Shown: in pieces, positions 5,008 through 29,504 of the stretch | Numbering within the stretch: the stretch's first letter is position 1 | Layout of the letters: each line of letters begins with the position of its first letter | Origin: a virus | Taxonomy: Duplodnaviria; Heunggongvirae; Uroviricota; Caudoviricetes | Virus record (IMG/VR): IMGVR_UViG_3300042301_002383 | Location: 67,322-97,638 of that record | Reading direction: 5' to 3' (one strand) | DNA: 30,317 nucleotides | Program-made: the position numbers and the translations under genes | The notes under the pieces: model-generated | Databases searched by the model: none | What the model saw: only the letters and a program-made list of their open reading frames with translations | What the model was told of the DNA's origin: nothing

Positions 5008-8000
5008 TTATTCAGGTCGTTTTGGTGTTGCGTCATTAGGGTTAACCTCTTGCAACATAAATTTATAAACCTTATTTTGTTTATTATTATATAAGAATAA
5101 ATCATTCTCACCCTCAACAATTGTATAGTCACCAATACCATTACTTAAAGATAAATCGGAAGTAAAGACTGTGTTCCATCTTAATGATGATGAACCTAAA
5201 TTATATGTACCATTTGCAGATGGGAATATCCCTCCAGTTATGAAAAATCTACCATCGGCAACGAATGTAAATTTAGACTCAGCAACGCTAGCGGTACCAA
5301 AATGAAATCCAATCATATCCTGAGAACCACCATAACCACCCGATCCTTGAAAATAGGAAATACCATAAGCATCCGCATTACCAAAACTCCAAATACGATT
5401 TCGACCTGAAGCATATGTTGCACTTTGGAAACCACTTTGACTGGCAACCACCGTACCGTTAACTGTTATACCTGCGAATGTTGGTGAATTACTTGTACCA
5501 ACACTTTGATTAATTGTATAGGCAGTAATGTTACTAGCAGTACCAGTTGTGTTTTGATTCCATGTTGGTATGTTACCCGCGTGATATATTGTATATTCTG
5601 TTGTACCAACTCCAGCTCTTAGTTTAAGTCCGTTAATATCCGCAGGATTCAACACAAGAATATCATCAGCATCGTTAGACGTACCAATAACTAATCTGTT
5701 TGCTTCACCTGATGAACCACCAATACCGTAAGAATGAAATTGTATAAATCCAAAATCGGAAGGATGATTAATGTTTGTACCATCTTTTTCTGATTCAAAG
5801 AATATACCACTAACACCGGATGAATTACCTTTTAATACAATGTTATCCGCACCTGTTACATAGTTTGATAAACTTACATATGTACCTCTTGATAATGACC
5901 CACCAATAGTTAAACCACCTGTTAATGTAGTATCAACAAACGTTGGTGAGTTACCCGTGCCAACACTTTGGTTGATTGTATATGCGGTAATATTACTAGC
6001 GGTACCTGTTGTGTTCTGATTCCAAGTTGGTATGTTACCAGAGTGATAAACGGTTTGACCTAACCAAGTTATGGTGGAATTATTATATAATTTTAAACCT
6101 TCACTATAAACACCATTACCATCTTTACTCCCAATATCAATATATCTATTTGCTGTTGCACTATCATATCTAACTTTAATAACCGGACCATTTGCTGGTC
6201 CATCTAAAATTGTGTATACAGTTTGGTTAGCATATCCGTTTAATGAAGTTGCGTATCCTGAAATATTTGTTTGGTCTCCTGTATTTGTTCCTGATGATGT
6301 ACCACTATAGTTTGACGCTGATAATGTTCCAGGGAATGTTGTGTTACCACTACCATCTAATAATGTTGCAGTTCTTGTAACTGTTGTAAATACACCCGTA
6401 TATTGACGAACATAAATTGGTTCATTACCATCATCAGCAGTTGCCAATTCCATCCAACCACTATTTCCCGCATCACCACCAACACGAATTCTTGCGTAGT
6501 CATTATCTGCAATTTGTGAGTATAGTAAATTCGCGGCGTTTGTTCCTGTTAATGTTTGTGTAACTTGTGTTGCTGTTGATGCATTACCACTTAACGCTCC
6601 ACTAAATGTTGTTGCTGTTAAAGTACCTGAACTAAATGTTAAACCAGCATTACCTTGAATTGTTCCTGCGGTACCTGTTGCGGTTAAAACGTAGTTAGCG
6701 GTATTATTGTTAATTATCGCAGCACCTGATGTACCCGCTGAACCACTTGATCCCGAAGAACCCGAACTACCTGAAGAACCTGAATTTCCTGAGGTTCCTG
6801 AACTACCTGAAGATCCTGAACTACCTGCAGTTCCCGATGTTCCACTTGTTCCAGCACTACCGCTAGAACCTGATGTACCTCTAGTTCCTGATGATCCACT
6901 AGAACCACTAGAACCTGCTGCTCCTGACGTTCCAGAGCTACCTGAAGTTCCTGTTGTACCGCTAGAACCTGATGTGCCACTAGTTCCTGTTGTTCCAGAT
7001 GTACCACTAGAACCTGCTGTTCCTGATGACCCACTTGAACCGCTAGAACCTGAACTACCACTTGTACCCGCACTTCCACTAGAACCTGAACTACCACCGG
7101 CACCAGAACTACCTGAACTTCCACTTGTACCTGAAGTACCGGCCGCAGCTAACCAAGTTGTTCCGTTATATCTATAAATGTTATTATCGGTTGTGTTATA
7201 GAATAACTGACCAGCAGCGTTACCTATTATATTACCTGTACCACTTGCTGTAGGTATTCTTAAAGATCCCGTAACAAAAACACTACCTGTAAAATTATGA
7301 TTATCTCCAGTGTCGTCACCGAATTTTGTTGACCCTGAAGCGAATGATGTTGTAATAAAACTAACTGATGAGCTGACAATAAATTGTTGAGCAGTTAAAC
7401 TACCCGTTACAACCAAATTACCTTTTACTGTTGTTAAAGATGTATTAAATGTAATATCATTACCAGTATCAACTATATTTGAATTACCAACTGTAGATGC
7501 TGAAGTAAATTTAACTATTGTGCCAGAATTACCCGAAACTGAAACTGATGTACCTGACGTTCCACTAGTCCCTGAAGAACCTGATGTACCGGCACTTCCG
7601 CTAGAACCTGATGTACCTGATGTTCCTCTTGTACCAGAAGAACCTGATGTACCACTAGAACCCGTACCACCACTAGAACCTGATGTTCCACTAGAACCCG
7701 ATGTTCCTGATGAACCACTAGTACCACTAGAACCTGATGTACCAGCAGTTCCACTAGAACCTGAAGTACCAGTTGTACCACTAGAACCTGACGTACCAGT
7801 TGTACCACTAGAACCTGACGTACCTGCACTACCACTACTTCCTGAAGTACCCGCACTACCACTAGAACCTGATGTTCCACTTGTACCAGAAGAACCTGAT
7901 GTACCACTAGAACCCGTACCACCACTAGAACCTGATGAACCTGCGGTTCCTGATGTACCTGCACTACCACTACTTCCTGAAGAACCATTTGCACCACTAG

Positions 8001-11000
8001 AACCTGAAGTACCCGCACTACCACTAGAACCTGATGTTCCTCTTGTACCAGAAGAACCCGATGTACCACTACTACCATTGGCACCACTTGATCCTGAAGA
8101 ACCTGAAGTACCGGCACTTCCGCTAGAACCTGATGTTCCTCTTGTACCACTAGAACCTGATGAACCACTAGAACCTGCAACACCAGAAGAACCTGACGAA
8201 CCACTAGAACCTGATGTTCCACTTGTTCCAGCACTACCGCTAGTTCCTGATGTGCCAGCGGAACCTGATGAACCACTACTACCATTAGCACCACTTGATC
8301 CTGACATACCTGATGTACCTGCACTTCCACTAGAACCTGATGTTCCTGAAGTACCACTAGAACCCGCAACTCCACTACTTCCACTAGAACCTGACGTTCC
8401 ACTAGTTCCTGAAGCACCACTTACACCCGATGAACCACTACTACCACTTGTCCCTGCGGTACCACTTGAACCTGACGTTCCACTAGTTCCTGAAGAACCC
8501 GCAGCCACCAACCAAGTTGTACCGTTATATCTGTAGATATTATTATCTGTTGTATTATAAAATATTTGTCCCGCTATTGTACCTAATGCAGTACCTGTTG
8601 ATGTTGCAGTTGGGACAACCATTGAACCTGTAACCCTTAACGAACCAGTAAATTGGTGTGTATCATCTATTGAATTACCGAATACATGTGAACCAGACGC
8701 AAATGATTGTGTCAAATGCATTACTGAAGATGATATGATAAGTTGTTGAGCGGTTAAGTTACCTGTTACTACTAAACTTCCTGTTACAACTGCATTTTGA
8801 CCAACTCTAAATGTTGTTCCATCATCCGTTAAGTTTGTGGCATTTCCAACAGTTGTTGCTGATGTAAATTTAGTTAATGTATTATTTGTTCCTGAAGTTG
8901 TAATTGAGGTACCTGAAGAACCGCTAGTACCTGATGTTCCACTTGTTCCTGAAGTTCCAGTTGATCCGCTACTTCCGCTAGAACCTGATGTACCTGCACT
9001 ACCGCTAGAGCCTGAACTTCCACTTGTTCCTGAAGTTCCTCTAGTACCACTAGAACCTGAGCTACCACTACTTCCTGAAGAACCCGTAGCACCACTAGAA
9101 CCTGATGTTCCAGCACTTCCACTTGTTCCCGCACTACCGCTAGAACCTGAAGTACCAGTTGTACCAGAAGAACCTGATGTACCACTAGAACCCGTACCAC
9201 CACTAGAACCTGATGTTCCAGCACTTCCACTTGTTCCCGCACTACCGCTAGAACCTGAAGTACCACTAGAACCTGTAGCACCACTAGTACCTGATGTACC
9301 GGCACTTCCACTTGAGCCAGATGTACCTGATGTACCTCTAGTTCCACTAGAACCTGATGTGCCAGCACTACCACTAGAACCTGAGCTACCACTTGTTCCC
9401 GCACTACCACTAGAACCTGAACTACCTGATGTTCCACTAGTACCTGAAGAACCCGTAGCACCACTGGAACCTGATGTACCGGCAGAACCTGAAGTTCCAG
9501 ATGTACCTGACGTACCGCTTGAACCTGAGGTTCCCGATGTACCAGCACTACCGCTAGAACCTGATGTACCAGCAGTTCCTGAAGTTCCACTTGTTCCCGA
9601 AGAACCTGCAGCTCTTAACCAAAATGAACCATCATATCGATAGATATTTGTGTCTGTGGTATTATAATATATTGAACCTGTTGCAGTCCCTACTGGATTT
9701 GAGGATGCTCTAGGTATTTGTAATGACCCTGTTACACTTACAGAACCTGTAAAATTATGGTTATCATCTAACGTATCTCCGAATTTAGTTGAACCTGACG
9801 AGAATGACGTTGTAAGATGTGTAACCGAAGAGCTCACAATAAATTGTTGAGCAGTTAGATTACCCGTAACCACCAATGAACCGGTTACAATTGTATTAGA
9901 CCCTAATCTAACTGTTGTACCGTCATCTGTTATATTTGAATTACCAACCGTAGAGGTTGATGTGAATTTAACGACTGTATTATTGGTGCCTGAAGTTGTG
10001 ATTGATGTACCTGAGCTACCTGATGTTCCCGAACTTCCACTAGTACCTGAAGTACCTGCACTACCGCTAGAACCCGATGTTCCTCTTGTACCACTAGAAC
10101 CTGAACTTCCTGAAGAACCGCTTGTTCCCGAAGAACCTGATGTACCGGCAGTTCCACTTGTTCCTGCACTACCACTACTTCCTGATGTTCCACTAGTACC
10201 TGCAGACCCTGATGACCCTGAAGTTCCGGCACTACCTGATGAACCTGCGGTTCCTGAAGTTCCAGCAGAACCTGAACTACCACTAGTACCTGATGAACCT
10301 GCCAATCCTGAACTACCTGAAGTACCACTAGTACCCGCACTACCGCTAGAACCTGATGTGCCAGCGGAACCTGATGAACCACTAGAACCTGAGGTACCTC
10401 TAGTACCACTTGAACCTGATGTACCAGCACTACCACTAGTGCCTGTTGAACCTGAGCTACCTGATGTGCCAGATGTACCAGCACTACCCGAGCTTCCACT
10501 AGTTCCCGATGAACCTGAACTACCTGACGTACCCGCAGTTCCTGAAGTTCCAGATGTACCTGCCGCCTTTAACCAGAATGAACCATCATATCTATATATG
10601 TTGGTATCGGTTGTGTTATAATATAATTGACCCGCAACTGTTCCCGTAGGGTTTGCAGATGCTGTAGGTATTTTTAAAGAACCTGTTATGTTAACAGAAC
10701 CAGTAAAGTTATGATTGTCATCAATCGTGTCTCCAAATTTTGTCGAACCTGAAGCGAATGATGTTGTTATATAACTAACCGAACTACTAACAATGAATTG
10801 TTGTGCAGTTAAGTTTCCTGTAATCACTAATGACCCCGTTACTACAGAGTTAGAACCTAATCTAATTGTTGTACCATCGTCAGTTATATTTGAATTACCT
10901 ACCGTTGATGTTGAAGTAAATTTAACTACAGTATTATTAGTTCCCGATGTTGTGATTGAGGTACCAGAACTACCTGATGTTCCACTTGTTCCTGATGAAC

Positions 11001-12765
11001 CAGCCGAACCACTAGAACCTGATGTACCTGACGTACCCGCAGAACCCGATGATCCCGCAGTACCACTTGTGCCTGTCGAACCTGAACTGCCTGAAGTACC
11101 ACTAGTTCCCGCAGATCCTGAACTTCCACTTGTTCCTGAAGTTCCCGCACTTCCACTAGAACCAGCAGTTCCTGAACTACCTGATGAACCTGAAGTTCCA
11201 GCCGAACCACTACTTCCACTAGAACCCGATGAACCACTTGTACCTGAAGTACCTGCACTACCGCTAGAACCCGATGTTCCCGCTGAACCTGAACTACCTG
11301 AAGTTCCTGATGATCCAGATGTACCACTAGTTCCTGAAGATCCTGATGTGCCAGCAGAACCTGAAGTTCCCGCACTTCCACTAGAACCGGCAGTTCCTGA
11401 ACTACCTGAAGTGCCACTTGTACCAGTACTACCACTAGAACCAGAGGTTCCACTTGTACCTGCCGAACCACTAGTTCCCGCAGAACCGCTAGAACCTGAC
11501 GTACCTGCACTACCACTACTTCCTGATGAACCACTAGTACCTGATGTACCTGCAGCTTTTAACCAAGTGTTACCGTCATATCTATATATGTTGGTATCAG
11601 TTGTATTATAATATATTGAACCTGTTGCATTTAAAACAGGATTTGTATTTGAAACTGGTACAACCATTGATCCAGTAACTCTTATTGAACCAGTGAATTG
11701 ATGTAAATCATCTAACGTATCACCAAATTTTGTTGAACCTGATGAAAACGATGTTGTAAGATGTGTGACAGAAGATGAAACAATAAATTGTTGAGCGGTT
11801 AAGTTTCCTTGAACTGTTAAATTACCAGAAACTACCCCACTACCCGTTACACTTAAATTAGAACCGTCAAATCTTAAATTAGATTCAACCGTTGCATTTG
11901 TTCCACTACCATTATATGTAATAACACCATCGGTTGTTGAACCTGTTAATGTCACTAAACCAGATGTACCCGATGAACCTGCTGTTCCACTACTTCCTGA
12001 TGAGCCGGCGGTTCCTGAACTACCAGATGTACCGCTAGTTCCTGCACTTCCACTACTACCAGATGTTCCTGCGGTTCCTGAAGTACCTGTGCTACCACTT
12101 GACCCAGATGTTCCGCTAGTACCGGATGTACCCGCACTACCTGAGCTACCTGATGTTCCAGCAGAACCAGAACTTCCTGATGTACCCGAACTTCCACTAG
12201 TTCCAGCAGAACCAGAACTACCTGATGTTCCACTTGTTCCTGAAGTACCCGAAGTTTGTGAATTATAAGATGTACCATTCAATATAAAGTCACCACCTTT
12301 TAATTCAATAGACCCTGTTACATTAACAGAACCTGTGAATATATGTGCATCATCTAATGAATTACCAAATTTAGAAGATTCGGTTACTTTTAATGTTCCT
12401 GTTACTTCTGAATTGGAATTAATTCTAAGACCATTTGCTTGTGAAATAGAAGCGGTTGCACTTCCGTCTGTAATTTGATTTAATTGAAGTCCTGTTACTC
12501 CTGATGCCGGAATATTAAATAATCCGTTACCGTTCCCAATAAAAGATCCTGTGAAAGAACCCGTAGTGTAAGAAGAGGTAAATGCACCGAATGAACTTGT
12601 TAAAGTATACATTGGTGCAAATGAAGCGGTTTCGGCAGAAACTGCGTTAGTTGTGTTACCACTAATATTACCAATAATATTACCTAAGACCGTTAAATCA
12701 CCAGAAATTTCAGCCGAACTTGAGACTGAAAGTGAACCGGATATGTGTGCGTCAAATATATTCAT
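5008..12765 (-). CDS. Giant fibre protein (2585 aa) with six Gly-X-Y Ser/Thr-rich tracts, five repeated modules and a tail-fibre-type C-terminal region
   Basis: Uninterrupted ORF. The C-terminal part has tail-fibre-like motifs ([19 protein letters not shown], and a terminal [18 protein letters not shown]...[13 protein letters not shown]......YKF domain). It is flanked by LamG and glycine-rich genes. Confidence 0.85.
5476..6048 (-). repeat. 37-aa direct duplication within the fibre C-terminal region (copies at 5476-5586 and 5938-6048)
   Basis: YH[A/S][28 protein letters not shown][S/G]NSPTF. Codon-by-codon comparison gives 35/37 identical residues and 14 synonymous codon differences. Confidence 0.9.
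6724..12255 (-). repeat. Six coding Gly-X-Y tracts ([12 protein letters not shown])
   Basis: Approximate tracts: 11959-12255 (99 aa), 10957-11550 (198), 10003-10560 (186), 8905-9606 (234), 7546-8499 (318), 6724-7140 (139). Gly falls at every third residue and there is no Pro. Confidence 0.9.
7141..11958 (-). repeat. Five homologous 132-136-aa modules in the fibre
   Basis: Approximate modules: 11551-11958, 10561-10956, 9607-10002, 8500-8904, 7141-7545. Shared core: LTAQQ(F/L)I(V/I)SSSV...SF.SGS..FG....D.H.FTGS..VTGS...G...YNTTD.NIYRY.G..WL.AAG. Confidence 0.9.
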
Positions 12766-20045: not shown

Positions 20046-20060
20046 AACTTAAAAAGTCAA
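20032..20060 (-). promoter_or_regulatory. sigma70-like promoter TTGACT-N17-TATATT
   Basis: -35 at 20055-20060 and -10 at 20032-20037 with a 17-nt spacer. The ATG at 20024 follows the -10 by only 7 nt. Confidence 0.65.
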
Positions 20061-20863
20061 ATTAAATTTTGTTTAATTTTTGATAAATCATTCAAATAAC
20101 TTGAGAAGTTTTTAGTTATAAAATTGTGTAATTTATATGAATAGGTTTTATTATGGTTTGGTCCTGGATGTATGTCATCAACTCCATAATCCAAAAAAGG
20201 TCTTCCGTAATCACCATCGAATCTGTTAAATTCATTATAATCTTTTGGTATGTGGAAAAAACCATTCCATATCCAATTACATTTTTTAGATTCTAAAAAA
20301 TGCTTTATTAATAAATGATTTTTGTACCAATTTATAAAATCTTCATTATCATTTTGTAAATAAGTTAAATATTCTTGTGTTTTAACACCATCATCTGTTT
20401 CTTTCAAATATCCCCAAGATAATGTGGGCATAAAGGGTTCTATTCCCCCATCTTTAGTATATAATTCTCTTCTAAATGTATTTGTATACATTATTAATAC
20501 CAAATCTGGTTTAATTAAATCATAGTAACTCATTAAACATCTACATATAAAATCGTTACTTCTTCCTCCTGTTCCAAAGTTTAAATTTACCCCATTTTCA
20601 ATATGGTTACAAAATTGTGCCGGCCAAGTTTCATTATCATTGACACCGACTCCTTCCGTAATTGAACAACCTAATGACATAACTTTAAAACCTTCTTTTT
20701 TTATACTATCACCTCTAAATCCTAATTCATTATAGGTGTAGGTACATAGTCCTGTATTATCTCCACCGGAAGTTGTATATGTCTGATTTACTCTTTCTTT
20801 TAATGAATATTTGTAAGATGAGATTTCAAATCCTTTCGGGTTCCAATATTCTAATGGGTTCAT
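20057..20863 (-). CDS. SGNH/GDSL-like hydrolase or acyltransferase
   Basis: NELGFRGD, block I LGCSITEG, block II NFGTGGRSND, block V DDIHPG. Confidence 0.7.
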   Translation of the reverse strand: MNPLEYWNPKGFEISSYKYSLKERVNQTYTTSGGDNTGLCTYTYNELGFRGDSIKKEGFKVMSLGCSITEGVGVNDNETWPAQFCNHIENGVNLNFGTGGRSNDFICRCLMSYYDLIKPDLVLIMYTNTFRRELYTKDGGIEPFMPTLSWGYLKETDDGVKTQEYLTYLQNDNEDFINWYKNHLLIKHFLESKKCNWIWNGFFHIPKDYNEFNRFDGDYGRPFLDYGVDDIHPGPNHNKTYSYKLHNFITKNFSSYLNDLSKIKQNLI

Positions 20864-21360
20864 ATTAATTTATTTGTTTCTGTTTTTATATGTTCATTTT
20901 GTAAAAACCAAAGTAATGAGTATCGTTCACCTTCTAAAATTGGTGCTATTTCATGCTCAATTCCTACATCAAATATATAAGTGTTTCCAATAATTTTATT
21001 TAAAATTATTTCATTTGGATTATACAATGTAAAATCACCACCTTCAAAGTTATCATTTAATAAAACACCAACCGCATATAATCTGTTATCTCTAATATCA
21101 TTGTGTTTTCCAAACCAATCACCTTTCGTAAATTTATGCAAATGTATCGTTTTTTTTATTGTTCTAATTTCAATGTTTGTTTCCCTTTCCACAAAATCCT
21201 TCAACTTATCAAATAACCAATTGGTTTCTAATGAATAATCAATTGGTTGTGAATTATATTTTCTATCCCCCATTCTCCAATTTGTAATATGTTGATTGGA
21301 TTCTAATATAATGGACTCACACTCCTCTTTACTAAATAAGATTTTTTCTTTTAATATCAT
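20860..21360 (-). CDS. 2OG-Fe(II) oxygenase (prolyl hydroxylase-like)
   Basis: KHND...LLNDNFEGGDF...IEHEI.PI..GERYSL. Confidence 0.85.
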   Translation of the reverse strand: MILKEKILFSKEECESIILESNQHITNWRMGDRKYNSQPIDYSLETNWLFDKLKDFVERETNIEIRTIKKTIHLHKFTKGDWFGKHNDIRDNRLYAVGVLLNDNFEGGDFTLYNPNEIILNKIIGNTYIFDVGIEHEIAPILEGERYSLLWFLQNEHIKTETNKLI

Positions 21361-21370
21361 TTTTCTTAAT

Positions 21371-21913
21371 TTATAAAAATTTTCTTTTTGTTTTCCTCCT
21401 ATTTCTTAACCTATTTGTATTATCTAATAGGTGTTCATACTTTGTACTTGTTAAACCAATATAATCTTTTATTCTTTGTATATCCTCTTTGGTGTCGTAT
21501 ATCCCTTCATATGTAACTTTTAACTGAATTTCTTTTATTGTATTAAAATAGTCAATTGTATTATTTACCCATTCCTCAAAATATTTTATGTCTATTTCGT
21601 TTTCTTTTATCCATTCATCACTTACTTCATACCCATTTCTCCATTCCTTTCGTTGTACTGCTTTGGTATGTGATATTGAACACTCTCTCGCATCCTCACG
21701 CGTTAATCCAATTATCTTATCCCAATTTGTTAAATCAATATCCATTCTATTTTCAATTTCACTAATATTATATTTTACCACAATATTGTTTCCTTCAATG
21801 GATTGATTTGTGTATATTGGTTCATGTATCATTTTATGTTCTAGCTCCATAGACAACCATTCATTCAATTGATATCCACCACTTCTTGATAATGCAATAA
21901 TTAAAATTCTCAT
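21371..21913 (-). CDS. Sulfotransferase-like protein
   Basis: N-terminal IIALSRSGG...L......HEP (5'-PSB-like loop), IIGLTRED...S, VTYE.IY. Confidence 0.55.
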   Translation of the reverse strand: MRILIIALSRSGGYQLNEWLSMELEHKMIHEPIYTNQSIEGNNIVVKYNISEIENRMDIDLTNWDKIIGLTREDARECSISHTKAVQRKEWRNGYEVSDEWIKENEIDIKYFEEWVNNTIDYFNTIKEIQLKVTYEGIYDTKEDIQRIKDYIGLTSTKYEHLLDNTNRLRNRRKTKRKFL

Positions 21914-22950
21914 ATTAACGTTTTATTTGTAGTATCAATAAACTCATATAGATTATGAAATAGATTTGTGTTTTTCCACACTTTATTAAACTCTCTTTTA
22001 AATAATTCATGTTCTGGATGATTTGTATTCCAAACTTGTTTTAATTTAAACTCGCCCTCTGAAAATGTGCCCCAATTAGTTATCTTACCGAAAAACACAT
22101 TTACTTTCTTACCAAAAATAGAATACATTAAATTATAAAATGTTTCCATTTCGGTATAATTTGTATCTTGTACCACAAATGAAGTTTTAACACTTATTGG
22201 TAATGTATTAATGAATTTTAAATTGTTTATTAGATTTTCCCAATTACCACCTATTCTTGTTTTATTTTCATAGGTGTCTTTTGTACCTGCATCTATACTA
22301 ATTTCACAACTATGAACATATTTATGTATATTTGGCATACTATCCCACATTTCTTTATTCCACATTGATGCGTTTGTATGAAGATGTATTGATTGCAGTT
22401 TTGGATATTTTTTAGGATTAAAATTTCTTAGATAATTTCTAAACCCAACCGAAACAAACGGGTCTCCTGATCCTGTTATATATAGTGATTTCACATTTGC
22501 AGAATAATGAGTATCAATTTCTTCAATTGTTTTCTCTATCCGTTTAATTCCATTACTGTTTTCAACAATTAAATCTACCCTACAAGATGGACATTTATAA
22601 TTACAAGTTCTATCAAAGTTCATCATTAACATATCAGGAGTGTTATTTTCTATAATAGTATTATTAATATTTGAATTTGATTTTAAAGTAATTGGACCAT
22701 TTGCAACCCCATAATTTACTAATTTACTTAAAAATGGACAAAGTTCTTTATTACAATACTTAAATGAACCATCTAACATACTTTCTCTAATCTCTTGAAC
22801 AGGTTCACTATTCCATATTTCATTTAATTTATATTCATCTCTTTTAAATGAAACATTTAACCAAGATGGACAACACAAAAAATATTGATTATTGTGTATT
22901 TCCAATGAGTTGAATGGTACACCACATATGTAATTTTTTAAATCTACCAT
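21910..22950 (-). CDS. Radical SAM protein with N-terminal SPASM/twitch-like Cys domain
   Basis: CNYKCPSC (CxxxCxxC), ITGSGDP, LHTN, ISIDA. N-terminal CGVPF...LCC...IWNS...IR..M..G....C....CP. Confidence 0.85.
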   Translation of the reverse strand: MVDLKNYICGVPFNSLEIHNNQYFLCCPSWLNVSFKRDEYKLNEIWNSEPVQEIRESMLDGSFKYCNKELCPFLSKLVNYGVANGPITLKSNSNINNTIIENNTPDMLMMNFDRTCNYKCPSCRVDLIVENSNGIKRIEKTIEEIDTHYSANVKSLYITGSGDPFVSVGFRNYLRNFNPKKYPKLQSIHLHTNASMWNKEMWDSMPNIHKYVHSCEISIDAGTKDTYENKTRIGGNWENLINNLKFINTLPISVKTSFVVQDTNYTEMETFYNLMYSIFGKKVNVFFGKITNWGTFSEGEFKLKQVWNTNHPEHELFKREFNKVWKNTNLFHNLYEFIDTTNKTLI

Positions 22951-22959
22951 ATTTTATTA

Positions 22960-23430
22960 TTAATGAAACCAAAAATTTAATGCGTATCGTGTTCCTTCTG
23001 TAACTGGTTTTACTTCGTGATATTGATGACCGCCATCAAATACAACACCATCTCCCTTTTTTAAATTTACAACTTTATTATTTATATATGTATCTCCACC
23101 TATAAACCCATTGGATAACAAAATTATTGATGTTTTATTTTTTGCACCATCTACATGTCTTCGTAACCACCTACCATCCTTATATTCGGTCATTTGTAAC
23201 CACATCGTTTTGTAATTAGGGAAATTATTTTTACTCAACTCATTTATAACTGTATTATAAATTTCTTCATTCCACTTTTCTCTTTCTAGTAGTTGAATAC
23301 CTTGTTGACCCCATATCAACCAAACAAACCAGTTTGTTTTATGGGATTCACTTAAAACACATTCATTCTTAATTTTATCTATTAAATTATCACAAAATTC
23401 GTTGGGTAAAAGATTTTTATATATTTCCAT
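22960..23430 (-). CDS. 2OG-Fe(II) oxygenase
   Basis: EYKDG..LRRHVD...LS.GF.GG.T...KKGDGVVF....YHEVKPV.EGTRYAL. Confidence 0.85.
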   Translation of the reverse strand: MEIYKNLLPNEFCDNLIDKIKNECVLSESHKTNWFVWLIWGQQGIQLLEREKWNEEIYNTVINELSKNNFPNYKTMWLQMTEYKDGRWLRRHVDGAKNKTSIILLSNGFIGGDTYINNKVVNLKKGDGVVFDGGHQYHEVKPVTEGTRYALNFWFH

Positions 23431-23994
23431 TTAAAATAAAGTTTTTTCTTTTTTTACTTTATCCTTTATTTGAAATCCTAATGTTAAAGTTATTCTTGGT
23501 TTTTCTCCTATTACCGGCATACTGCCATGTTCGACCCTACCAGCAACACACCTCCAAACCATTCTTTCTTTTAACTCATTAATCTTACCATTATATATTG
23601 AGTGTCCGCCTTCATGTGGATATGATAGTATTATGTTATATCTAACATGTGTATATCCATCTAAATTTGAATCACTATGTAAATGAATTGAACCCCCTTC
23701 TTTATTAATACCAATTGCGTCTTCAAACATTGGGTCTAATATCCAATCATTAATTTTTTCTACTTCAATTACCCTATCCTTTATTTTTTTTACCAAATCT
23801 AATGGTGAATTTAATATTTTTGTTAATACACCGATTTGTCTAGAACCATATGGCGCATTTATGGTATGACTATTAGTTGTGTTTATTTGAAATAGATGTG
23901 AATTAGAATTTGTCCAAAATAAAAGATTTTCTTGTTCTTCATTTGTTATGAATTCTTCATAACCATATGTGTCATTCAAAATTATTTTTTTCAT
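23431..23994 (-). CDS. 2OG-Fe(II) oxygenase
   Basis: GGSIHLHSD...RYNIILS.P.EGG...EHGSMPV.G..PRITL. Confidence 0.8.
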   Translation of the reverse strand: MKKIILNDTYGYEEFITNEEQENLLFWTNSNSHLFQINTTNSHTINAPYGSRQIGVLTKILNSPLDLVKKIKDRVIEVEKINDWILDPMFEDAIGINKEGGSIHLHSDSNLDGYTHVRYNIILSYPHEGGHSIYNGKINELKERMVWRCVAGRVEHGSMPVIGEKPRITLTLGFQIKDKVKKEKTLF

Positions 23995-24722
23995 AATAAT
24001 GTTTTATTTATTTTTCTTTGTTCAAACTCTTTATAAAGATTATCATATTTTTGTTTAAAATTATCATTGATTTCTATTACACACTCAAATTGTTTACTTG
24101 AGTTTATTTTTTCCATTTTAAAATCCTTATTTAATTTTTTTGATACCCAATTTTCTAATTCCACCAAATTATCAATATCAAACCAAATAATATTTGGATT
24201 ACTATTTGTGAGTTCAACTACTGGTGTAAATAATATATCTAACATATTTTTAGTATAGGACTCTTTTTTTGAAATTTTTAACTTAGTTAAAAAATTATCA
24301 ATAACTTTAGACCTATTTTCCAAATTATAAATGTCATTTGATGTGATATTATCAAACATATCATTAGTTGTTAACTTTGAAAATTTATCAGCAATATCAA
24401 ATTTATTTTTTCTGTATAATTCATCTATAATGTGTTTCCATAAAGATAAAAATCTATCATAATTGTTTCTTCTTATTGAAATAATTTGATTGTTTATACC
24501 AAATTTTTCTTGTAATATATATAATGGTTCATGTGCGTGTACTAAACTATCCGCCAATTCTTCATTATTCATTTTTTCCCATTCATTTATTTTAATCAAC
24601 TGATTATCAAGGTTTGAATTGAAATGTTCTACTGGTATCTTGTTTTTTAGACACGTAATCATAAATGATGTTGAAGCACATCTTGGTAAACTTATAAAAA
24701 TAAATTTTTTATCTATTAACAT
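23991..24722 (-). CDS. Sulfotransferase family 2-like protein
   Basis: FIFISLPRCASTS (5'-PSB) and IRRNNYDRFLSLW (3'-PB). Confidence 0.75.
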   Translation of the reverse strand: MLIDKKFIFISLPRCASTSFMITCLKNKIPVEHFNSNLDNQLIKINEWEKMNNEELADSLVHAHEPLYILQEKFGINNQIISIRRNNYDRFLSLWKHIIDELYRKNKFDIADKFSKLTTNDMFDNITSNDIYNLENRSKVIDNFLTKLKISKKESYTKNMLDILFTPVVELTNSNPNIIWFDIDNLVELENWVSKKLNKDFKMEKINSSKQFECVIEINDNFKQKYDNLYKEFEQRKINKTLL

Positions 24723-25402
24723 TATATTAAATGATTTCCCTTTTCAAATCTCTTTTCAAAATTTTCCCAAATGAATGATTTTAATTCGTCATTTACAATT
24801 ATCTTATTTGGTCGTTTGGATGTTTTATTTGTGTGATTTATAATTAATGTTTCTCCAAATCTATCTTCTATAAAATCTGTAAATTTATCAATTTCACTAA
24901 TGTCAAATTCGTAGGTACATTTTTTATTAGATTTGAAAAATCTTTGGGAAAGTAAAGTGTCAACCGCACCTCTAATCGGTAATTCACATTCAAAATTTTC
25001 TTTTACTAGTTTAAACCAGCACTTCCTAAATCCATCGTGATCGTTACTCAACAAATGTAATTTATTTAAAAAATCGGTATTAAATGTTTTATAGATATAT
25101 TCATTATCAACATCCTCCCATTTACGAACAGCAGTGTATTCGCTTTCAAATTCTATATTATCCCAAACAAAATTTAGGGCACTTAACCATCTAGATAACC
25201 AATCACGTGTTATACAAACAGTTTCTTTATCCCCCCATCGTTCTAAACATTGATTCACCGGTACGTGAAAATGCCGTGTTTTGTCATTTGGTACAAATAT
25301 TTCTAAATTTAATTTTGAGTTTCTTAATGATTGTTCAATGGAATAACTGGCACACTTTGGGATAGAAACCCAAATGAGTTCATTATTAATTAAATGAGAC
25401 AT
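24722..25402 (-). CDS. Sulfotransferase family 2-like protein
   Basis: WVSIPKCASYSI, ITRDWLSRWLSA, SQ..F, and a C-terminal N...K-type end. Confidence 0.75.
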   Translation of the reverse strand: MSHLINNELIWVSIPKCASYSIEQSLRNSKLNLEIFVPNDKTRHFHVPVNQCLERWGDKETVCITRDWLSRWLSALNFVWDNIEFESEYTAVRKWEDVDNEYIYKTFNTDFLNKLHLLSNDHDGFRKCWFKLVKENFECELPIRGAVDTLLSQRFFKSNKKCTYEFDISEIDKFTDFIEDRFGETLIINHTNKTSKRPNKIIVNDELKSFIWENFEKRFEKGNHLI

Positions 25403-25404
25403 TT

Positions 25405-25707
25405 TTATATAATTGTTTTAGTTGATTTAAACCCTTTTAAATATTCATCTTCAACTTGTTTCCACTTTCCTAACGGACACGATCCCTTTTTATCTAAATA
25501 TGTTTTGGGTGTGTATACTTTACCTTTTAATGGGCAACCACATTCTCCACATTTTAATGACCATTCTTTATTTTTATTTTTAAAAAATTCTTGTTTAGAT
25601 GGGCATTCTAAACAAATATCAAACCTATCATCTGCCAATTTTTTTAATTCATTAGAGTGTATAAGTGTATTGTACCACGCGATTGAAATTTCTTTGAGAT
25701 CTATCAT
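25405..25707 (-). CDS. Small six-Cys metal-binding protein (DUF6171-like)
   Basis: R..ICLECP...CGECGCPL..K.......CPLGKW. Confidence 0.7.
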   Translation of the reverse strand: MIDLKEISIAWYNTLIHSNELKKLADDRFDICLECPSKQEFFKNKNKEWSLKCGECGCPLKGKVYTPKTYLDKKGSCPLGKWKQVEDEYLKGFKSTKTII

Positions 25708-25708
25708 A

Positions 25709-26281
25709 TTATAAGAGTGTTTTTTTATAACTACTTTTTTCTTTTATTGCAACCCAATTAACTAATGTATATCTATTACCATTTTTAACTACCGTTACTC
25801 TATGATCGATATCAGATAAAAAAACGATAGTGTTACCTATTCCCTTTTCTACTTTCATTATTGAACCATCGGATAATTTTAATTCTAAATCACCTTCTTC
25901 ATATTCATCATTTAGTTGTATAACTAAAGAACAATATCTTTCGTGTTGTGTAACTTCTTTTCCTGTAATATCTTTATGCCAAACAAAAAAATCACCATCT
26001 TTATATTCTGTGAATTGGAATTGACTATTTTTGTAATCTAAATCGAATCCTTTTATGGTGATATTTTCATCTAATAATTTAGATATTTTTTCTAATATAA
26101 ATGGAAATTTTTGATAATATGGATAAAATACCACATTTGATTTTCTGGTACCATAAGTTGGGGAATCATAACCAATGGTTTTTGCAGGATTTAATATTAA
26201 ATTTTCTAATGTGAAATTCAGAACTAAATCACATTCTTCTTTTGTTAATAAATTTGATACGGATTTATATGTAAACGACAT
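25709..26281 (-). CDS. 2OG-Fe(II) oxygenase (PKHD/prolyl 4-hydroxylase-like)
   Basis: QFTEY..GDFFVWHKD...SLVIQLN.EYEEGDL...G.TIVF.S.IDHRV..V..GNRYTLV.W. Confidence 0.9.
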   Translation of the reverse strand: MSFTYKSVSNLLTKEECDLVLNFTLENLILNPAKTIGYDSPTYGTRKSNVVFYPYYQKFPFILEKISKLLDENITIKGFDLDYKNSQFQFTEYKDGDFFVWHKDITGKEVTQHERYCSLVIQLNDEYEEGDLELKLSDGSIMKVEKGIGNTIVFLSDIDHRVTVVKNGNRYTLVNWVAIKEKSSYKKTLL

Positions 26282-26287
26282 AACTTT

Positions 26288-26818
26288 TTATATTAATGAT
26301 TTTGTTTTTTTTGTTATATAGTTAACCGGCATCCAATGTAGAAAAAATTGTAATACTCTTTGGGTTTCGTCGCATTCTAAAGGATTTCTCCAATGAACGT
26401 TTTTATCAGCATCAAATAATAATATTCCGTCGCCTATATTTGTGTGATGTGAGTATTCTTCACCACCTATTTTAGCAAATAATGGCCATTCTTTGTTTAT
26501 TGTTGACTCTAAACATATTGAAATTGTTACACTTATATCTGTTCTATCTATATGTTTTGTTAAAAATGCACCATTGAAATACTCCCTAACATATGTGTTC
26601 ACATTATCTAAATGTTCAATTCCATTATTGAATTCTAACACTTTTGGTTTTAATTTTTCCATATATTTATCAAAATTATATGAAGGTCTAAATCCAAAAG
26701 AAGCATTCGTTTCTACCATTTTATCACTAGAAGAGTTATTTACCTTTTCAATATCAAATTGTTTAGATAAAAATACACATTCCTCCTTTGAAAGAATATT
26801 TGGAATGAAGTAAATCAT
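26288..26818 (-). CDS. 2OG-Fe(II) oxygenase-like protein
   Basis: YVREY..G..L.KHIDR...SVTISI......WPL...GDGIL.....HWR.PL. Confidence 0.75.
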   Translation of the reverse strand: MIYFIPNILSKEECVFLSKQFDIEKVNNSSSDKMVETNASFGFRPSYNFDKYMEKLKPKVLEFNNGIEHLDNVNTYVREYFNGAFLTKHIDRTDISVTISICLESTINKEWPLFAKIGGEEYSHHTNIGDGILLFDADKNVHWRNPLECDETQRVLQFFLHWMPVNYITKKTKSLI

Positions 26819-26836: not shown

Positions 26837-26926
26837 TTAACTATTTGCAGTTACAATTAAATTGCCAATGGTAGTTAAAGTTGTGTTCAGTACGTTGATT
26901 TCTGTGTTTGTTATTATAGTTGTCAT
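26837..26926 (-). CDS. 29-aa Thr/Asn/Ile-rich peptide, below the ORF-track threshold
   Basis: Manual translation: MTTIITNTEINVLNTTLTTIGNLIVTANS*. It fills the gap between the ATP-grasp-Hint gene and the first oxygenase and has an A-rich 5' context. Confidence 0.55.
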   Translation of the reverse strand: MTTIITNTEINVLNTTLTTIGNLIVTANS

Positions 26927-26951: not shown

Positions 26952-28451
26952 TTAACTCCAACATATTCCTTGATAAGCATTACAAGTCGGGTTACCGTAT
27001 GGACCGGAACAATATGGTTCGTTTTTTGGACAAGTCGGACAAGCGCCCCCCCAACAACATCCCACTGGACAACTAGGTCCATTATGTTCAATCGAAACAA
27101 ACGATTCGTTATTTGTTGATGTGGTCTTAGTTAAAAATAAGTGTGTTCTTTCTACTGAAATAAACCAACCGGTAAATACTTTTTTAATTTGTGTAACAGA
27201 TACTACTGTTTTTCTAACAAAATCCATTAACCCATCCGTTGTGTTTAACAATAAAACCGCATCTCCAGATACCACATCAAATAAATTTTCAAATTGAACT
27301 TCATTATTTCTTTCAATCAAATACGAAGAAACTCCCGTATCCTCCCAAGTACTATTATCGTCAAAAGTTAATTGATAAAAATATGATAATTTATTAACTC
27401 TTTTTAATGCATTAATTTTGTTTGTTGAATATGTTGTACCACTTAGTAATGTTTCATACGTTATTCCAAAATTTGCGGTATAGGATGCATTATCTGTGCC
27501 ATTTGGATTTGGTATATCAATTGTTTTAATTACATCATCAACATTTAAATCTAATGCGGTTTTAAATGTGCCGTCAGCCATTTCTACTAAATCAGTATCT
27601 AACAGTTTTGGTAACCAGTTACTATTTACAGAAGTTGTATAACTATCTCTATATTCTGAATTTATCTCATAAGTTTCTGAGTTATATTCTACATCAGTAA
27701 AAAATATATTTTCATTTAATTTAGTATATTGTCCTATATGAATTGATTGTAACGTCGGTGGGTATAATATGTTTAAACTTCTAACTACCTTTATGTGACC
27801 TTCGTAACTATTAGTGGTGTTACAGTAGTTTTCCATTAAAAAATATTCAGATGTAACATTTTCTAAAACCACATCTAATTCTTCTTGTGTTGTTACTTTA
27901 TAAAATTTAGGATAAACCTCTTTATCATAGCCAGGATACCTTGATTTTAGAATAAAATTAGGGTGTACACCATTATCTGTTATTGTTGTTATAGTATTAA
28001 TTAAAGTGTTGTTTTCATCTATGTAAGCAAATTGTGAACCGAACGATTGGGATTGGATAAGTTTCATAAATTCAACCTTATCTCTACAATAGGTATCATC
28101 TACCAACGCAGTTGTATCATATGCACTTCTGATAATTAATGTTTCATCATTATCCTCTATAACTGGGATAGTAATCGACAAACCACCAATTGCGTGGTAT
28201 TCATATGTAACGGAACTTCCTGTGTAGTGTGTTTCTAATGTTTTATGAAAATATTGAATATCCCCAACGTAATGTATATTTTGGAAATTATTATCAGTAA
28301 CAAATTGGTATAAATTTGTTAAATCCAAACAATCCACATCATCTTCAACTTTGGATGCGTTATCCCAACCAACTGCGGTGTTTATTTCGATGGGTTTTAA
28401 ATTACCATCCTGATCGTACATAAAGTCCGAACCTATTAATACTGTTCTCAT
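26952..28451 (-). CDS. Fusion: circularly permuted ATP-grasp-like domain + Hint domain + Cys-rich C-terminal peptide
   Basis: N-terminal GSDFMYDQDGNLKPIEINT (D...ExN motif placed first) with later FILKS..G......YFLMENY. Residues 282-457 read KLLDTDLVEMADG.FK...DL.VDD.I...ISVE.THLFL...IEHN. They are followed by 42 aa with 8 Cys. Confidence 0.7.
   Translation of the reverse strand: MRTVLIGSDFMYDQDGNLKPIEINTAVGWDNASKVEDDVDCLDLTNLYQFVTDNNFQNIHYVGDIQYFHKTLETHYTGSSVTYEYHAIGGLSITIPVIEDNDETLIIRSAYDTTALVDDTYCRDKVEFMKLIQSQSFGSQFAYIDENNTLINTITTITDNGVHPNFILKSRYPGYDKEVYPKFYKVTTQEELDVVLENVTSEYFLMENYCNTTNSYEGHIKVVRSLNILYPPTLQSIHIGQYTKLNENIFFTDVEYNSETYEINSEYRDSYTTSVNSNWLPKLLDTDLVEMADGTFKTALDLNVDDVIKTIDIPNPNGTDNASYTANFGITYETLLSGTTYSTNKINALKRVNKLSYFYQLTFDDNSTWEDTGVSSYLIERNNEVQFENLFDVVSGDAVLLLNTTDGLMDFVRKTVVSVTQIKKVFTGWFISVERTHLFLTKTTSTNNESFVSIEHNGPSCPVGCCWGGACPTCPKNEPYCSGPYGNPTCNAYQGICWS
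27081..27608 (-). other. Hint (intein-like) domain predicted competent only for C-terminal cleavage
   Basis: Block A-like LLDTDLVEMADG has Lys where the Cys1/Ser1 nucleophile aligns. Terminal His-Asn is intact (27081-27086), the +1 residue is Gly, the length is 176 aa and there is no endonuclease insert. Confidence 0.65.
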
Positions 28452-28469
28452 ATTTTCCTTATTTTATAT

Positions 28470-28478
28470 ATAAATACC
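28470..28478 (-). promoter_or_regulatory. GGTATTTAT motif upstream of the ATP-grasp-Hint gene
   Basis: Lies 18 nt upstream of the ATG at 28451 and has the same core as the motifs at 1233 and 12789. Confidence 0.45.
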
Positions 28479-28693
28479 TATTTTTTATCTTTTAATCCAA
28501 ATTTTATCCATCTATACCATATCCTTTCGTGAATATAATATTGTATTGGTTTATATATTAATTCAGCCACGCCAAATGCTGTACCTACCTTTATTGACCC
28601 ACTAATCCACCACATTAATAAGAACCCTATTAAGGTGCTTACGATTCGATATGAAACGGTTTTGGCTATGTGTCTCTTACGTTCTACCATCAT
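28478..28693 (-). CDS. DUF2061-type small membrane protein
   Basis: HIAKTVSYRIVST...hydrophobic...YYIHERIW. This family is often found with APS kinase genes. Confidence 0.75.
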   Translation of the reverse strand: MMVERKRHIAKTVSYRIVSTLIGFLLMWWISGSIKVGTAFGVAELIYKPIQYYIHERIWYRWIKFGLKDKK

Positions 28694-29073
28694 TATCCTT
28701 TTGTTTGATCATATTTAATTTCACCATCAGGTGTCATGTGACCAGTTCTAATGGCTGTTCCGCTTATTACCGCCACATCCGCTGGTGGCTCATGATAAAT
28801 TACATCATAACCAACACCTCTACCGTAATTAACCGATTCAATATCCGGAATAATTGATAATAAAATCTTATCAAAATTCTCATTAAAAAATGGTTCTTGA
28901 ATTAACATTTGAAAAACCTCTTGGGCTGTCTTTGGATTGTTCTCATCAACTTCAACATCTCTAATAGCCACCCATACGTTCTTATCTTGGTCCATTTGTT
29001 GGCGAATCAACCATTCGTGACCTTTGTGCCAATTTTGCCACCTACCGATGTACATTGCATATTTCTTACTCAT
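28693..29073 (-). CDS. HUP-fold (cytidyltransferase-like) nucleotidyltransferase
   Basis: YIGRWQNWHKGH (HxGH) and a C-terminal ISGTAIR. Confidence 0.8.
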   Translation of the reverse strand: MSKKYAMYIGRWQNWHKGHEWLIRQQMDQDKNVWVAIRDVEVDENNPKTAQEVFQMLIQEPFFNENFDKILLSIIPDIESVNYGRGVGYDVIYHEPPADVAVISGTAIRTGHMTPDGEIKYDQTKG

Positions 29074-29504
29074 AATGATAATTTTTTTAACAGTTCATAA
29101 TATGAATCCGTTTCGTTTTTTATTGTTGTGTCTATATCTATAAAATTTTCTAATGGGGGTTCATATTCCTCAACGTGGAATTCATTCCTACCCCTATCCT
29201 CTGTAGTGTGAACATAAATCTCAACAACTGATGTGCTGAACTTAAACGATTCTCTTTGGTCTCTATATGGTGAAACTAAGGATACAATAACATTGTGACC
29301 CTTACTATGCATAAATTGTGCAATATATTGTGCTCTTTGAATGTTTAATCTTCTTCCTGTGATGGAATAGTCTTTATTCTTAAAGATGTCTCTTAGGTCA
29401 TCCCCATCGATGTGAATAACCTCATCTTTAGGGAAATATTCCACCAAGTATTTCGCTAGGGTTGTTTTACCTGCACCGGGCTGTCCTGTTAACCAATATA
29501 TCAT
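29070..29504 (-). CDS. cysC: Adenylyl-sulfate (APS) kinase
   Basis: YWLTGQPGAGKTT (P-loop), IDGDDLR, YS..GR..NI, VSLVSPY...R, YEPP. Confidence 0.85.
   Translation of the reverse strand: MIYWLTGQPGAGKTTLAKYLVEYFPKDEVIHIDGDDLRDIFKNKDYSITGRRLNIQRAQYIAQFMHSKGHNVIVSLVSPYRDQRESFKFSTSVVEIYVHTTEDRGRNEFHVEEYEPPLENFIDIDTTIKNETDSYYELLKKLSL

Follow-up and report, generated by a model that had tools for sequence, protein, structure and literature searches.

Circularly permuted ATP-grasp ligases, such as glutathione synthetase (GS; Protein Data Bank (PDB) entry 2hgs), GspS (2io7), YgiC and YjfC (7uka and 7uk6) and trypanothione synthetase, share one order of structural elements, and the characterized relatives of the GS/GspS/YgiC type link a short peptide, through its C-terminal carboxylate, to an amine. 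Hint domains carry out a different chemistry, autoprocessing: in Hedgehog, a single-turnover Hint domain releases or modifies its signaling cargo, and in polymorphic toxins the pretoxin-HINT domain stands directly before a highly variable, swappable C-terminal cargo that is thought to be released autoproteolytically. Here we analyze a phage gene that appears to bring these two chemistries together, P0001, encoded at positions 26952–28451 on the minus strand of a 30,317-nucleotide stretch of tailed-phage DNA (the window hereafter; positions 67,322 to 97,638 of IMGVR_UViG_3300042301_002383). The window is a part of a 97.6-kb IMG/VR viral record with a CheckV completeness estimate of 29%. The open reading frame (ORF), stop codon included, encodes 499 amino acids (aa) that form a ligase–Hint–cargo fusion; the plus-strand reading of the same interval is riddled with stops, and all window coordinates below likewise refer to the minus strand. 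We put at roughly one half the probability that P0001 is a self-cleaving precursor whose disulfide-rich peptide is set free either following an ATP-grasp ligation to an amine of the cargo or coupled with it. The domains are of known kinds; the assembly, that is, an enzyme, a cleavage-only Hint domain and a peptide, together with a micro-protein, a zinc-ribbon partner and a C-terminal tail shared by neighboring enzymes, is undescribed in the literature and family libraries searched. Full-text literature searches found no paper describing an ATP-grasp/Hint/peptide fusion, in agreement with the sequence-only reading that drew attention to the gene and knew of no phage system with this architecture.

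The AlphaFold (AF2) model of the N-terminal domain (residues 1–280; 27612–28451) has a predicted local distance difference test score (pLDDT) of 95 and a predicted template modeling score (pTM) of 0.91. In Foldseek searches of the PDB, the top matches were human, yeast and plant glutathione synthetases, YgiC/YjfC, GspS, trypanothione synthetase and 3n6x (E-values from 2.5e-6 to 1e-2), the best of which are permuted peptide-carboxylate ligases, collinear with the model over residues 1–275 (E-values from 2.5e-6 to 1e-4). VIA, a structure aligner independent of Foldseek, yielded Z scores of 8.6 (5oeu), 8.6 (7uka) and 8.3 (2io7) over model residues 1–277. By contrast, alignments with ATP-grasp enzymes of the canonical order (ArgX, LysX, RimK, Ddl, TTLL) begin only at about residue 55 (55–57); the structural matches include LysX and ArgX at Z scores of 5.3–5.6. 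Given that the GS/GspS/YgiC structures align from residue 1 and the canonical ones only from about residue 55, the domain bears the signature of a circular permutation, such that the D...E-x-N strand, which comes last in ordinary ATP-grasp enzymes, stands first in P0001.

The residues expected of an active ligase are in place. The Mg-binding motif D9...E22-I-N24 (DFMYDQDGNLKPIEIN; 28380–28427) is invariant, along with R108, D118 and R224, in two alignments, one of 95 diverse N-domains and the other of 77 sequences down to 23% identity, and T25, A115, P164, N165, K169 and P181 are nearly invariant in the former. K169 (27945–27947), within the FILKS segment on strand 166–170 of the model, is at least 90% conserved in both alignments and is a candidate for the lysine that binds the ATP phosphates; the YFLMENY segment follows at residues 203–209. 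Profile positions 9–32 pair weakly with the E-x-N motif of biotin carboxylase and Ddl (E-values 0.3–1.5), and sub-threshold Pfam matches to RimK, ATPgrasp_ST and YheCD recur among the 95 relatives. P0001 itself matches neither GSP_synth, CP_ATPgrasp and GSH_synth_ATP nor any other ATP-grasp model of Pfam or NCBIfam. Compared with the permuted ligases, P0001 shows the same element order across the 280-residue domain and likewise conserved positions of the Mg and ATP ligands; it differs from them in its low identity (about 10–14%) without a Pfam match, in its smaller size (280 aa against chains of about 370–600 residues) and in the fusion to a Hint domain and a cargo. Judging by the model and by conservation, residues 1–280 are thus predicted to constitute a permuted ATP-grasp amide ligase of the GS/GspS/YgiC clade with intact catalytic residues. 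The best-matching group includes enzymes with peptide substrates: YgiC and YjfC are peptide–spermidine ligases according to work cited in PMC12568646.

The second domain (residues 281–457; 27081–27611) adopts a Hint fold in the full-length model (pLDDT 73), and Foldseek retrieved inteins, the Hedgehog HhC domain and BIL domains with E-values of about 1e-7 and a template modeling (TM) score of up to 0.74 on the target. An internal reference for this domain (Hint1) is available because ten relatives bear a second, fully canonical Hint domain with Cys1, T-x-x-HPF and VYN...NF.ANGILVHN. In an hhalign comparison, the Hint1 profile matched this second domain with a probability of 98.6% and an E-value of 1.2e-15, in a register that aligns K282 with Cys1 and pairs the block-B Thr and His with D371 and S375, respectively. 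The position-1 column of Hint1 contains no conserved nucleophile, and the N-module of P0001 contains three cysteines in all, none of them within Hint. At the other end of the domain, N457 never varies and H456 reaches at least 90% conservation among 77 homologs down to 23% identity, so that N457 is conserved to the same degree as the ligase catalytic residues, and the His-Asn doublet is found in 110 of 116 representatives. The residue that follows is not conserved (A, P, Y, V, G, D, S, L and others), with Cys, Ser and Thr together accounting for only 14 of the 116. Conservation among relatives stops exactly at His-Asn, beyond which the cargo can be from 3 to 1242 aa long.

Because Cys1, the block-B Thr and His and the +1 nucleophile are lost, Hint1 should be unable to form a thioester or to splice, and a true intein was rejected on the same three counts. 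The terminal His-Asn (H456-N457; 27081–27086) leaves Hint1 with the residues for asparagine cyclization, which places the predicted cleavage site at N457|G458. C-terminal cleavage by asparagine cyclization without the earlier steps is a known off-pathway reaction of inteins (PMC4031507), and self-cleavage by the Hint domain, taken separately from any ligation, appears probable to us. The sequence-only reading had anticipated both folds, the lysine in place of Cys1 and the lack of the two nucleophiles; all the motifs it named (D9...E22-I-N24, FILK169S, YFLMENY, K282, H456-N457-G458 and the 42-aa tail) are present, and both folds emerged when AlphaFold and Foldseek were run.

Among described Hint domains, the BIL domains of Clostridium thermocellum (2lwy) and of Tetrahymena BUBL (BIL2; 6y75 and 6tmm) have the same fold as Hint1 (TM 0.69–0.73 on the target) and also combine a terminal His-Asn, in the absence of a +1 nucleophile, with autoprocessing rather than classic splicing. 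BIL domains, however, keep Cys1 and make a thioester, whereas Hint1 has Lys in this position and lacks the block-B Thr and His; the BIL-like domain of the family is the second, canonical Hint of nine relatives, unlike Hint1. The Hedgehog Hint domain uses Cys1 and lies C-terminal to its cargo, whereas the Hint domain of P0001 precedes the cargo. The arrangement resembles that of pretoxin-HINT, but where the toxins have a secretion or trafficking domain, P0001 has an enzyme, and its cargo is a small disulfide-type peptide or, in relatives, a BACON-bearing protein, with no recognized toxin domain. Furthermore, P0001 is phage-borne, lacks a nucleophile at position 1 and does not match the pretoxin-HINT model (PF07591), which its relative P0177 matches below threshold (21.3 bits against a cutoff of 27.7; E-value 3.4e-4).

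The cargo (residues 458–499; 26955–27080) consists of 42 aa, with 8 Cys, a single Lys and a mass of 4329.9 Da, and is hypervariable apart from the cysteines. In the near family, identity is 71% in the N-domain, 64% in Hint and 42% in the tail, falling to 28% once the cysteines are left out; the tail is thus the fastest-evolving part of the protein, with cysteine positions that are fixed. It has no Pfam match and a pLDDT of only 53–61 in the full-length model. Among the 116 representatives, the cargo is 15–70 aa long in 72, 71–250 aa in 33, more than 250 aa (up to 1242 aa) in 6, with BACON domains in three of these, and shorter than 15 aa in 5. The sequence-only reading had raised the question of whether the peptide after His-Asn is variable but always Cys-rich; it is variable, but not always a Cys-rich peptide: between members, the cargo is swapped among Cys-rich peptides, BACON-bearing segments, a second canonical Hint domain or almost nothing.

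The short cargos have a median length of 41 aa with 8 Cys and contain 17% Cys, compared with 0.5% in the N-module. The number of cysteines is even in 71 of the 72 short-cargo representatives and in all 46 distinct tails from independent loci (6, 8 or 10 Cys), a near-universal regularity that points to fully paired disulfides. A cytoplasmic metal-binding tail was considered and rejected, given that the even count argues otherwise. Apart from Cys, the composition is rich in Gly, Ser and Pro, with Asp at 4% and Glu at 2%. Lys occurs in every one of the 77 cargos that do not exceed 70 aa; 53 of them have exactly one, and 40 lack Arg. In 73 of these 77, a Lys is located in a C-x-K context or within the last four residues, compared with 28 ± 4 after shuffling (maximum 43 in 500 shuffles), and even the minimal cargos of 3–7 residues, RCAYK, AKQLW, KPKQPKK and YKA, keep one. 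In P0001, the sole Lys is K476 (C-P-K; 27024–27026), which is invariant in the near family.

In nine relatives, a segment of 3–35 aa (27–35 aa in the six Cys-rich ones) lies between the ...HN| of Hint1 and the |C of the second Hint domain, after which only a few residues remain, mostly Lys-rich. The peptide might be cut at both ends or, alternatively, the second Hint domain might be an insertion that splices itself out in BIL style and restores a ...KK tail; either way, the peptide is treated as a discrete product. These relatives mimic the engineered order of SICLOPPS (split-intein circular ligation of peptides and proteins), in which a peptide is placed between the C-terminal and N-terminal intein parts (IntC–peptide–IntN); SICLOPPS is artificial, and cyclization in the double-Hint relatives is only a possibility. 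In two distant members (29–30% identity; L003:1220–2446 and L082:1234–2439), the block of tail-tagged genes described below includes a flavin-dependent Trp-halogenase, and the cargos of these two members are rich in Trp and Tyr.

To characterize the genomic context, we fetched 69 related viral loci (45–99% identity) with the near-family alignment and compared the neighbors. P0001 was described in the sequence-only reading as self-contained, a view that these comparisons do not support, for the gene always travels with a micro-ORF (69 of 69 loci) and a zinc-ribbon protein, Cys100 (68 of 69), and, in most clades, with tail-tagged tailoring enzymes. The micro-ORF, unannotated, encodes 29 aa (MTTIITNTEINVLNTTLTTIGNLIVTANS; 26837–26926) and starts 25 nucleotides past the focal stop; across the 69 loci, it encodes 24–30 aa and starts 14–51 nucleotides past the stop, and it is absent from the gene calls of related contigs. 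It carries a coding signature, in that variability peaks at the third codon position and pairwise synonymous changes outnumber non-synonymous ones (2227 versus 1666), and its C-terminus, ...NS, is conserved. In distant loci, ORFs of 35–45 aa occupy the same position.

Cys100 (25405–25707) is a 100-aa DUF6171-like zinc-ribbon protein that ends in K-T-I-I. Its C35, C53, C56, C58 and C77 are invariant and C32 is at least 90% conserved; 11 of the 34 members match PF19668 (DUF6171), and zinc-ribbon-type matches were obtained as well. In divergent loci, it lies directly downstream of the focal gene, and it is present in L003, in L082 and, unannotated, in L004, the locus of the BACON member of 1667 aa, as well as beside a double-Hint member with 29% identity and a cargo-less member. 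The BACON member, which has the 1242-aa cargo and adjoins a tail sheath gene, is accompanied by both partners: an uncalled Cys100 homolog ending in SRLI directly after its stop (L004:5160–5400) and an uncalled helical micro-ORF of 30 aa just upstream (L004:58–150). A complex prediction for full-length P0001 and Cys100 gave scores of 0.04 and 0.01, against a mark of 0.32, which speak neither for nor against binding. The LysW/LysX amino-group carrier system presents a parallel, with neighboring genes for an ATP-grasp ligase and for a small zinc-ribbon protein whose C-terminal tail is flexible. In LysW, this tail is acidic (EDWGE), whereas that of Cys100 is K-T-[LI]-[LI] and recurs on many enzymes, and the ligase belongs to a different clade.

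Downstream of P0001, a block of 11 genes (20057–26818) encodes 2-oxoglutarate-dependent (2OG) oxygenases, two sulfotransferase-like proteins, a radical S-adenosylmethionine (SAM) protein, an SGNH-like protein and Cys100, most of which end in K-[TS]-L-[ILF]-COOH or in a looser x-x-[LI]-[LI]. The shared tail was first noted, for the window, in the sequence-only reading, which is also the source of the sulfotransferase-like label, a label for which our hidden Markov model searches yielded no match. The strict form, K-[TS]-[LI]-[LIF]-COOH, is present on 6 ORFs within 20057–26818 (7 with Cys100, which ends in KTII) and on none of the 137 other ORFs of the genome piece. Across the 69 loci, the tail tag marks the genes at positions +1 to +8 relative to the focal gene (strict form in 43 of 69 loci at +1 and 43 of 68 at +2), is nearly absent upstream (0–3 loci per position) and no longer occurs at gene +11 and beyond. 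Within each gene family, the tag is conserved; four cyanophage homologs of the 2OG enzyme, encoded in genomes without the focal gene, lack it.

The reading of P0001 as a self-cleaving precursor would then run as follows. P0001 would be a three-part, single-turnover precursor in which Asn457 cyclizes, cuts N457|G458 and frees a 4.3-kDa peptide, the cysteines of which would pair into four disulfides only outside the reducing cytoplasm, that is, at lysis or on the virion. Either ahead of this release or immediately after it, the tethered ligase would carry out an ATP-dependent acylation of one of the cargo's amines, that of Lys476 or of the new N-terminus. The acyl donor would be a peptide-type C-terminal carboxylate, for which the micro-protein or the K-T-L-[IL]-COOH tails on the products of neighboring genes are the best candidates; this proposal for the specific substrate of the ligase is tentative, and we hold it with considerably less confidence than the rest of the scheme. 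The tail-tagged 2OG oxygenases, sulfotransferase-like proteins and radical SAM protein would tailor the peptide or be recruited through their tails.

The scheme has an evident parallel in peptides that are made by ribosomes and modified post-translationally (RiPPs). As with RiPP precursors, a hypervariable core is encoded next to conserved tailoring enzymes, here 2OG oxygenases, radical SAM and sulfotransferase-like proteins that are syntenic in most of the 69 loci; an N-terminal portion would be removed, and an ATP-grasp enzyme is proposed to act on a ribosomal peptide. The "leader" of P0001, however, would be a 457-aa enzyme and self-protease, whereas a RiPP leader is a short peptide that is cut off by a separate protease. 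A graspetide system was rejected because both the ligase clade and the core composition are wrong: graspetides combine a RimK-type ligase with core crosslink motifs of Thr/Ser and Asp/Glu (or Lys), whereas P0001 has a GS/GspS-type ligase and a cargo without the Thr/Ser–Asp/Glu motifs. ATP-grasp ligases that act on a ribosomal peptide also include PGM1 of pheganomycin.

Several observations weigh against this reading. Cleavage and ligation are both deduced solely from conservation and fold, and searches of Pfam, PHROGs and NCBIfam gave no meaningful match to P0001, such that neither domain was recognized. The module cannot be only a maker of Cys-rich peptides because five members are nearly cargo-less and 39 have a cargo of more than 70 aa. 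In Hint1, the block-F His is not conserved in the family consensus and the +1 residue is Pro in 12 of the 116 members; without the branched intermediate, asparagine cyclization is normally slow (PMC4031507). The tail tag persists around the cargo-less member, which would relate the tagged enzymes to the N-module rather than to the Cys-rich peptide; in the locus of this member (L080), neither a separate Cys-rich small ORF nor a read-through cargo was found. Finally, the neighborhood resembles a glycan-decoration island with glycosyltransferases, methyltransferases and a carbamoyltransferase, and the tagged enzymes might, therefore, act on sugars.

The persistence of the tags without a cargo fits with a different division of labor, in which the ATP-grasp domain is a receptor for the K-T-L-[IL]-COOH tails and the giant "leader" brings the tagged enzymes to the tethered cargo, Hint cleavage releases the finished peptide, and ligase chemistry is secondary or directed at a small molecule. 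The closest structural relatives indeed bind a peptide C-terminal carboxylate, the tagged block starts exactly after the focal gene, the product of which is its only conserved untagged member, and the tag is an add-on extension that is missing from homologs in phages without the focal gene. Pure docking would not, however, require the full catalytic set (D9, E22, N24, K169, R108, R224), which is conserved, including in the BACON-cargo member, where no tagged enzymes are visible downstream except for the Cys100 homolog; we consider this explanation rather unlikely. The same tails could instead be substrates. The triad of focal gene, micro-ORF and Cys100 might constitute an ATP-driven protein ligation system, in which a tail or micro-protein carboxylate is phosphorylated and joined to the cargo Lys or N-terminus, and asparagine cyclization discharges the conjugate, akin to ubiquitin-like tagging with a different chemistry; this would explain why unrelated phage enzymes share a tail, but we regard it as unlikely. 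In the version of this idea in which the ligase couples the Cys-rich knot or BACON cargo, through its Lys or the N-terminus exposed by Hint, to the carboxylate of the micro-protein or of tagged proteins, the peptide-carboxylate chemistry of the relatives, the obligatory Lys of the cargo, the conserved tails and ...NS terminus, and the retention of the triad with a 1242-aa BACON cargo beside a tail sheath gene would all fall into place. Yet peptide-tagged metabolic enzymes bring no obvious benefit, the fusion is a stoichiometric, single-turnover one, there is no report of such a conjugate, and the hydrophobic tail differs from known acceptor tails of ligases, for instance the acidic tail of LysW; taken together, these points make this version decidedly unlikely.

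Conversely, there might be no self-cleavage at all, with Hint being a degenerate structural or binding module, the Cys-rich tail stabilized by metal or disulfides, and the 56-kDa protein functioning as a metabolite or glycan amidoligase within a sulfation and glycan-decoration island. The loss of Cys1, of the block-B residues and of the +1 nucleophile, a context rich in glycosyltransferases, methyltransferases, carbamoyltransferase and genes for sulfate-donor supply, and the existence of cargo-less members are compatible with such a protein. But then N457 would hardly be invariant precisely where the Hint domain gives way to a hypervariable, swappable cargo, a canonical second Hint domain would not be expected to bracket the peptide in 9 relatives, and the even number of cysteines indicates disulfides rather than a cytoplasmic metal site, so that we find this the least credible of the explanations and highly improbable.

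If P0001 is indeed a self-cleaving precursor, phages make small, disulfide-rich and probably tailored peptides by a route without a described counterpart, and no separate protease or leader-recognition element would be needed because the "leader" is an enzyme with its own protease. Two well-studied chemistries, ATP-grasp ligation and Hint autoprocessing, not previously found working together, would be linked, a widespread family would gain a testable function, and a role would be assigned to a DUF6171-like zinc-ribbon protein, an uncalled micro-gene and the shared C-terminal tail of phage enzymes. A natural cleavage-only Hint domain and, in the relatives, a natural IntC–peptide–IntN arrangement could also become tools for protein engineering.

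The family of P0001 is virus-borne. Its homologs in a metagenomic protein set form 772 clusters at 90% identity (E-value 0.01 or less), and those listed are mostly 485–502 aa long and encoded on viral contigs of up to 335 kb; a separate homolog search yielded 255 representatives at 50% clustering. Megablast and tblastn searches of P0001 against 50,697 deposited phage genomes produced no match, and in a profile search of the N-domain against a set of 5.8 billion proteins, the near family dominated the matches and no stand-alone or differently fused forms were seen. A scan of 185,579 prokaryotic genomes gave a single match with 45% identity, on a contig of 2044 bases (CAIWXP010000069.1; L079) that was binned into a metagenome-assembled genome of a Diapherotrites archaeon and is probably a mis-binned viral fragment. 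Freshwater and lake metatranscriptome contigs from four libraries match parts of window positions 27398–28507, some with 0–1 differences; such matches report presence in RNA libraries only and are evidence of neither transcription nor transcript ends, and the uncovered parts of the gene carry no meaning. Given the near-identity, this phage or a very close relative was present in those freshwater samples.

Some genes of the block deserve separate mention. The radical SAM protein (21910–22950), which ends in KTLI, is nearest to NF033640, "twitch domain-containing radical SAM" (E-value 9e-17, below the cutoff), with weaker matches to maturases of sactipeptides and dynobactin. A 2OG oxygenase encoded at 22960–23430 lacks the common tail and has its own ending, FWFH, which is found in 15 related loci. 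The 211-kb record IMGVR_UViG_3300042892_005961 encodes two paralogous systems about 38 kb apart (L043 and L066), one of them minimal, with the focal gene, micro-ORF, Cys100 and one enzyme, in which both tagged proteins end in KTLF, and the other full, with about 10 tagged enzymes whose last two residues are II, LI or LL. From these two systems, the tails may be system-specific.

Upstream of P0001, an untagged module (28478–29504), identified with Pfam and NCBIfam, encodes a DUF2061 membrane protein of 71 aa, a 126-aa nucleotidyltransferase and adenosine 5'-phosphosulfate (APS) kinase; DUF2061 is immediately upstream of the focal gene in 39 of the 69 loci. Together with the sulfotransferase-like genes, this module looks like a phage-borne supply of 3'-phosphoadenosine 5'-phosphosulfate (PAPS), in which the role of ATP sulfurylase might be taken over by the small nucleotidyltransferase. 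The nearest NCBIfam model of this 126-aa HxGH protein is nicotinamide mononucleotide (NMN) adenylyltransferase (E-value 1.3e-7, far below the cutoff). Farther along the window, a 2585-aa ORF (5008–12765) shares its stretch with several long ORFs that are read in other frames and from the opposite strand, which suggests a compositionally biased repeat protein, and the ORFs beside it match PHROGs for virion structural proteins.

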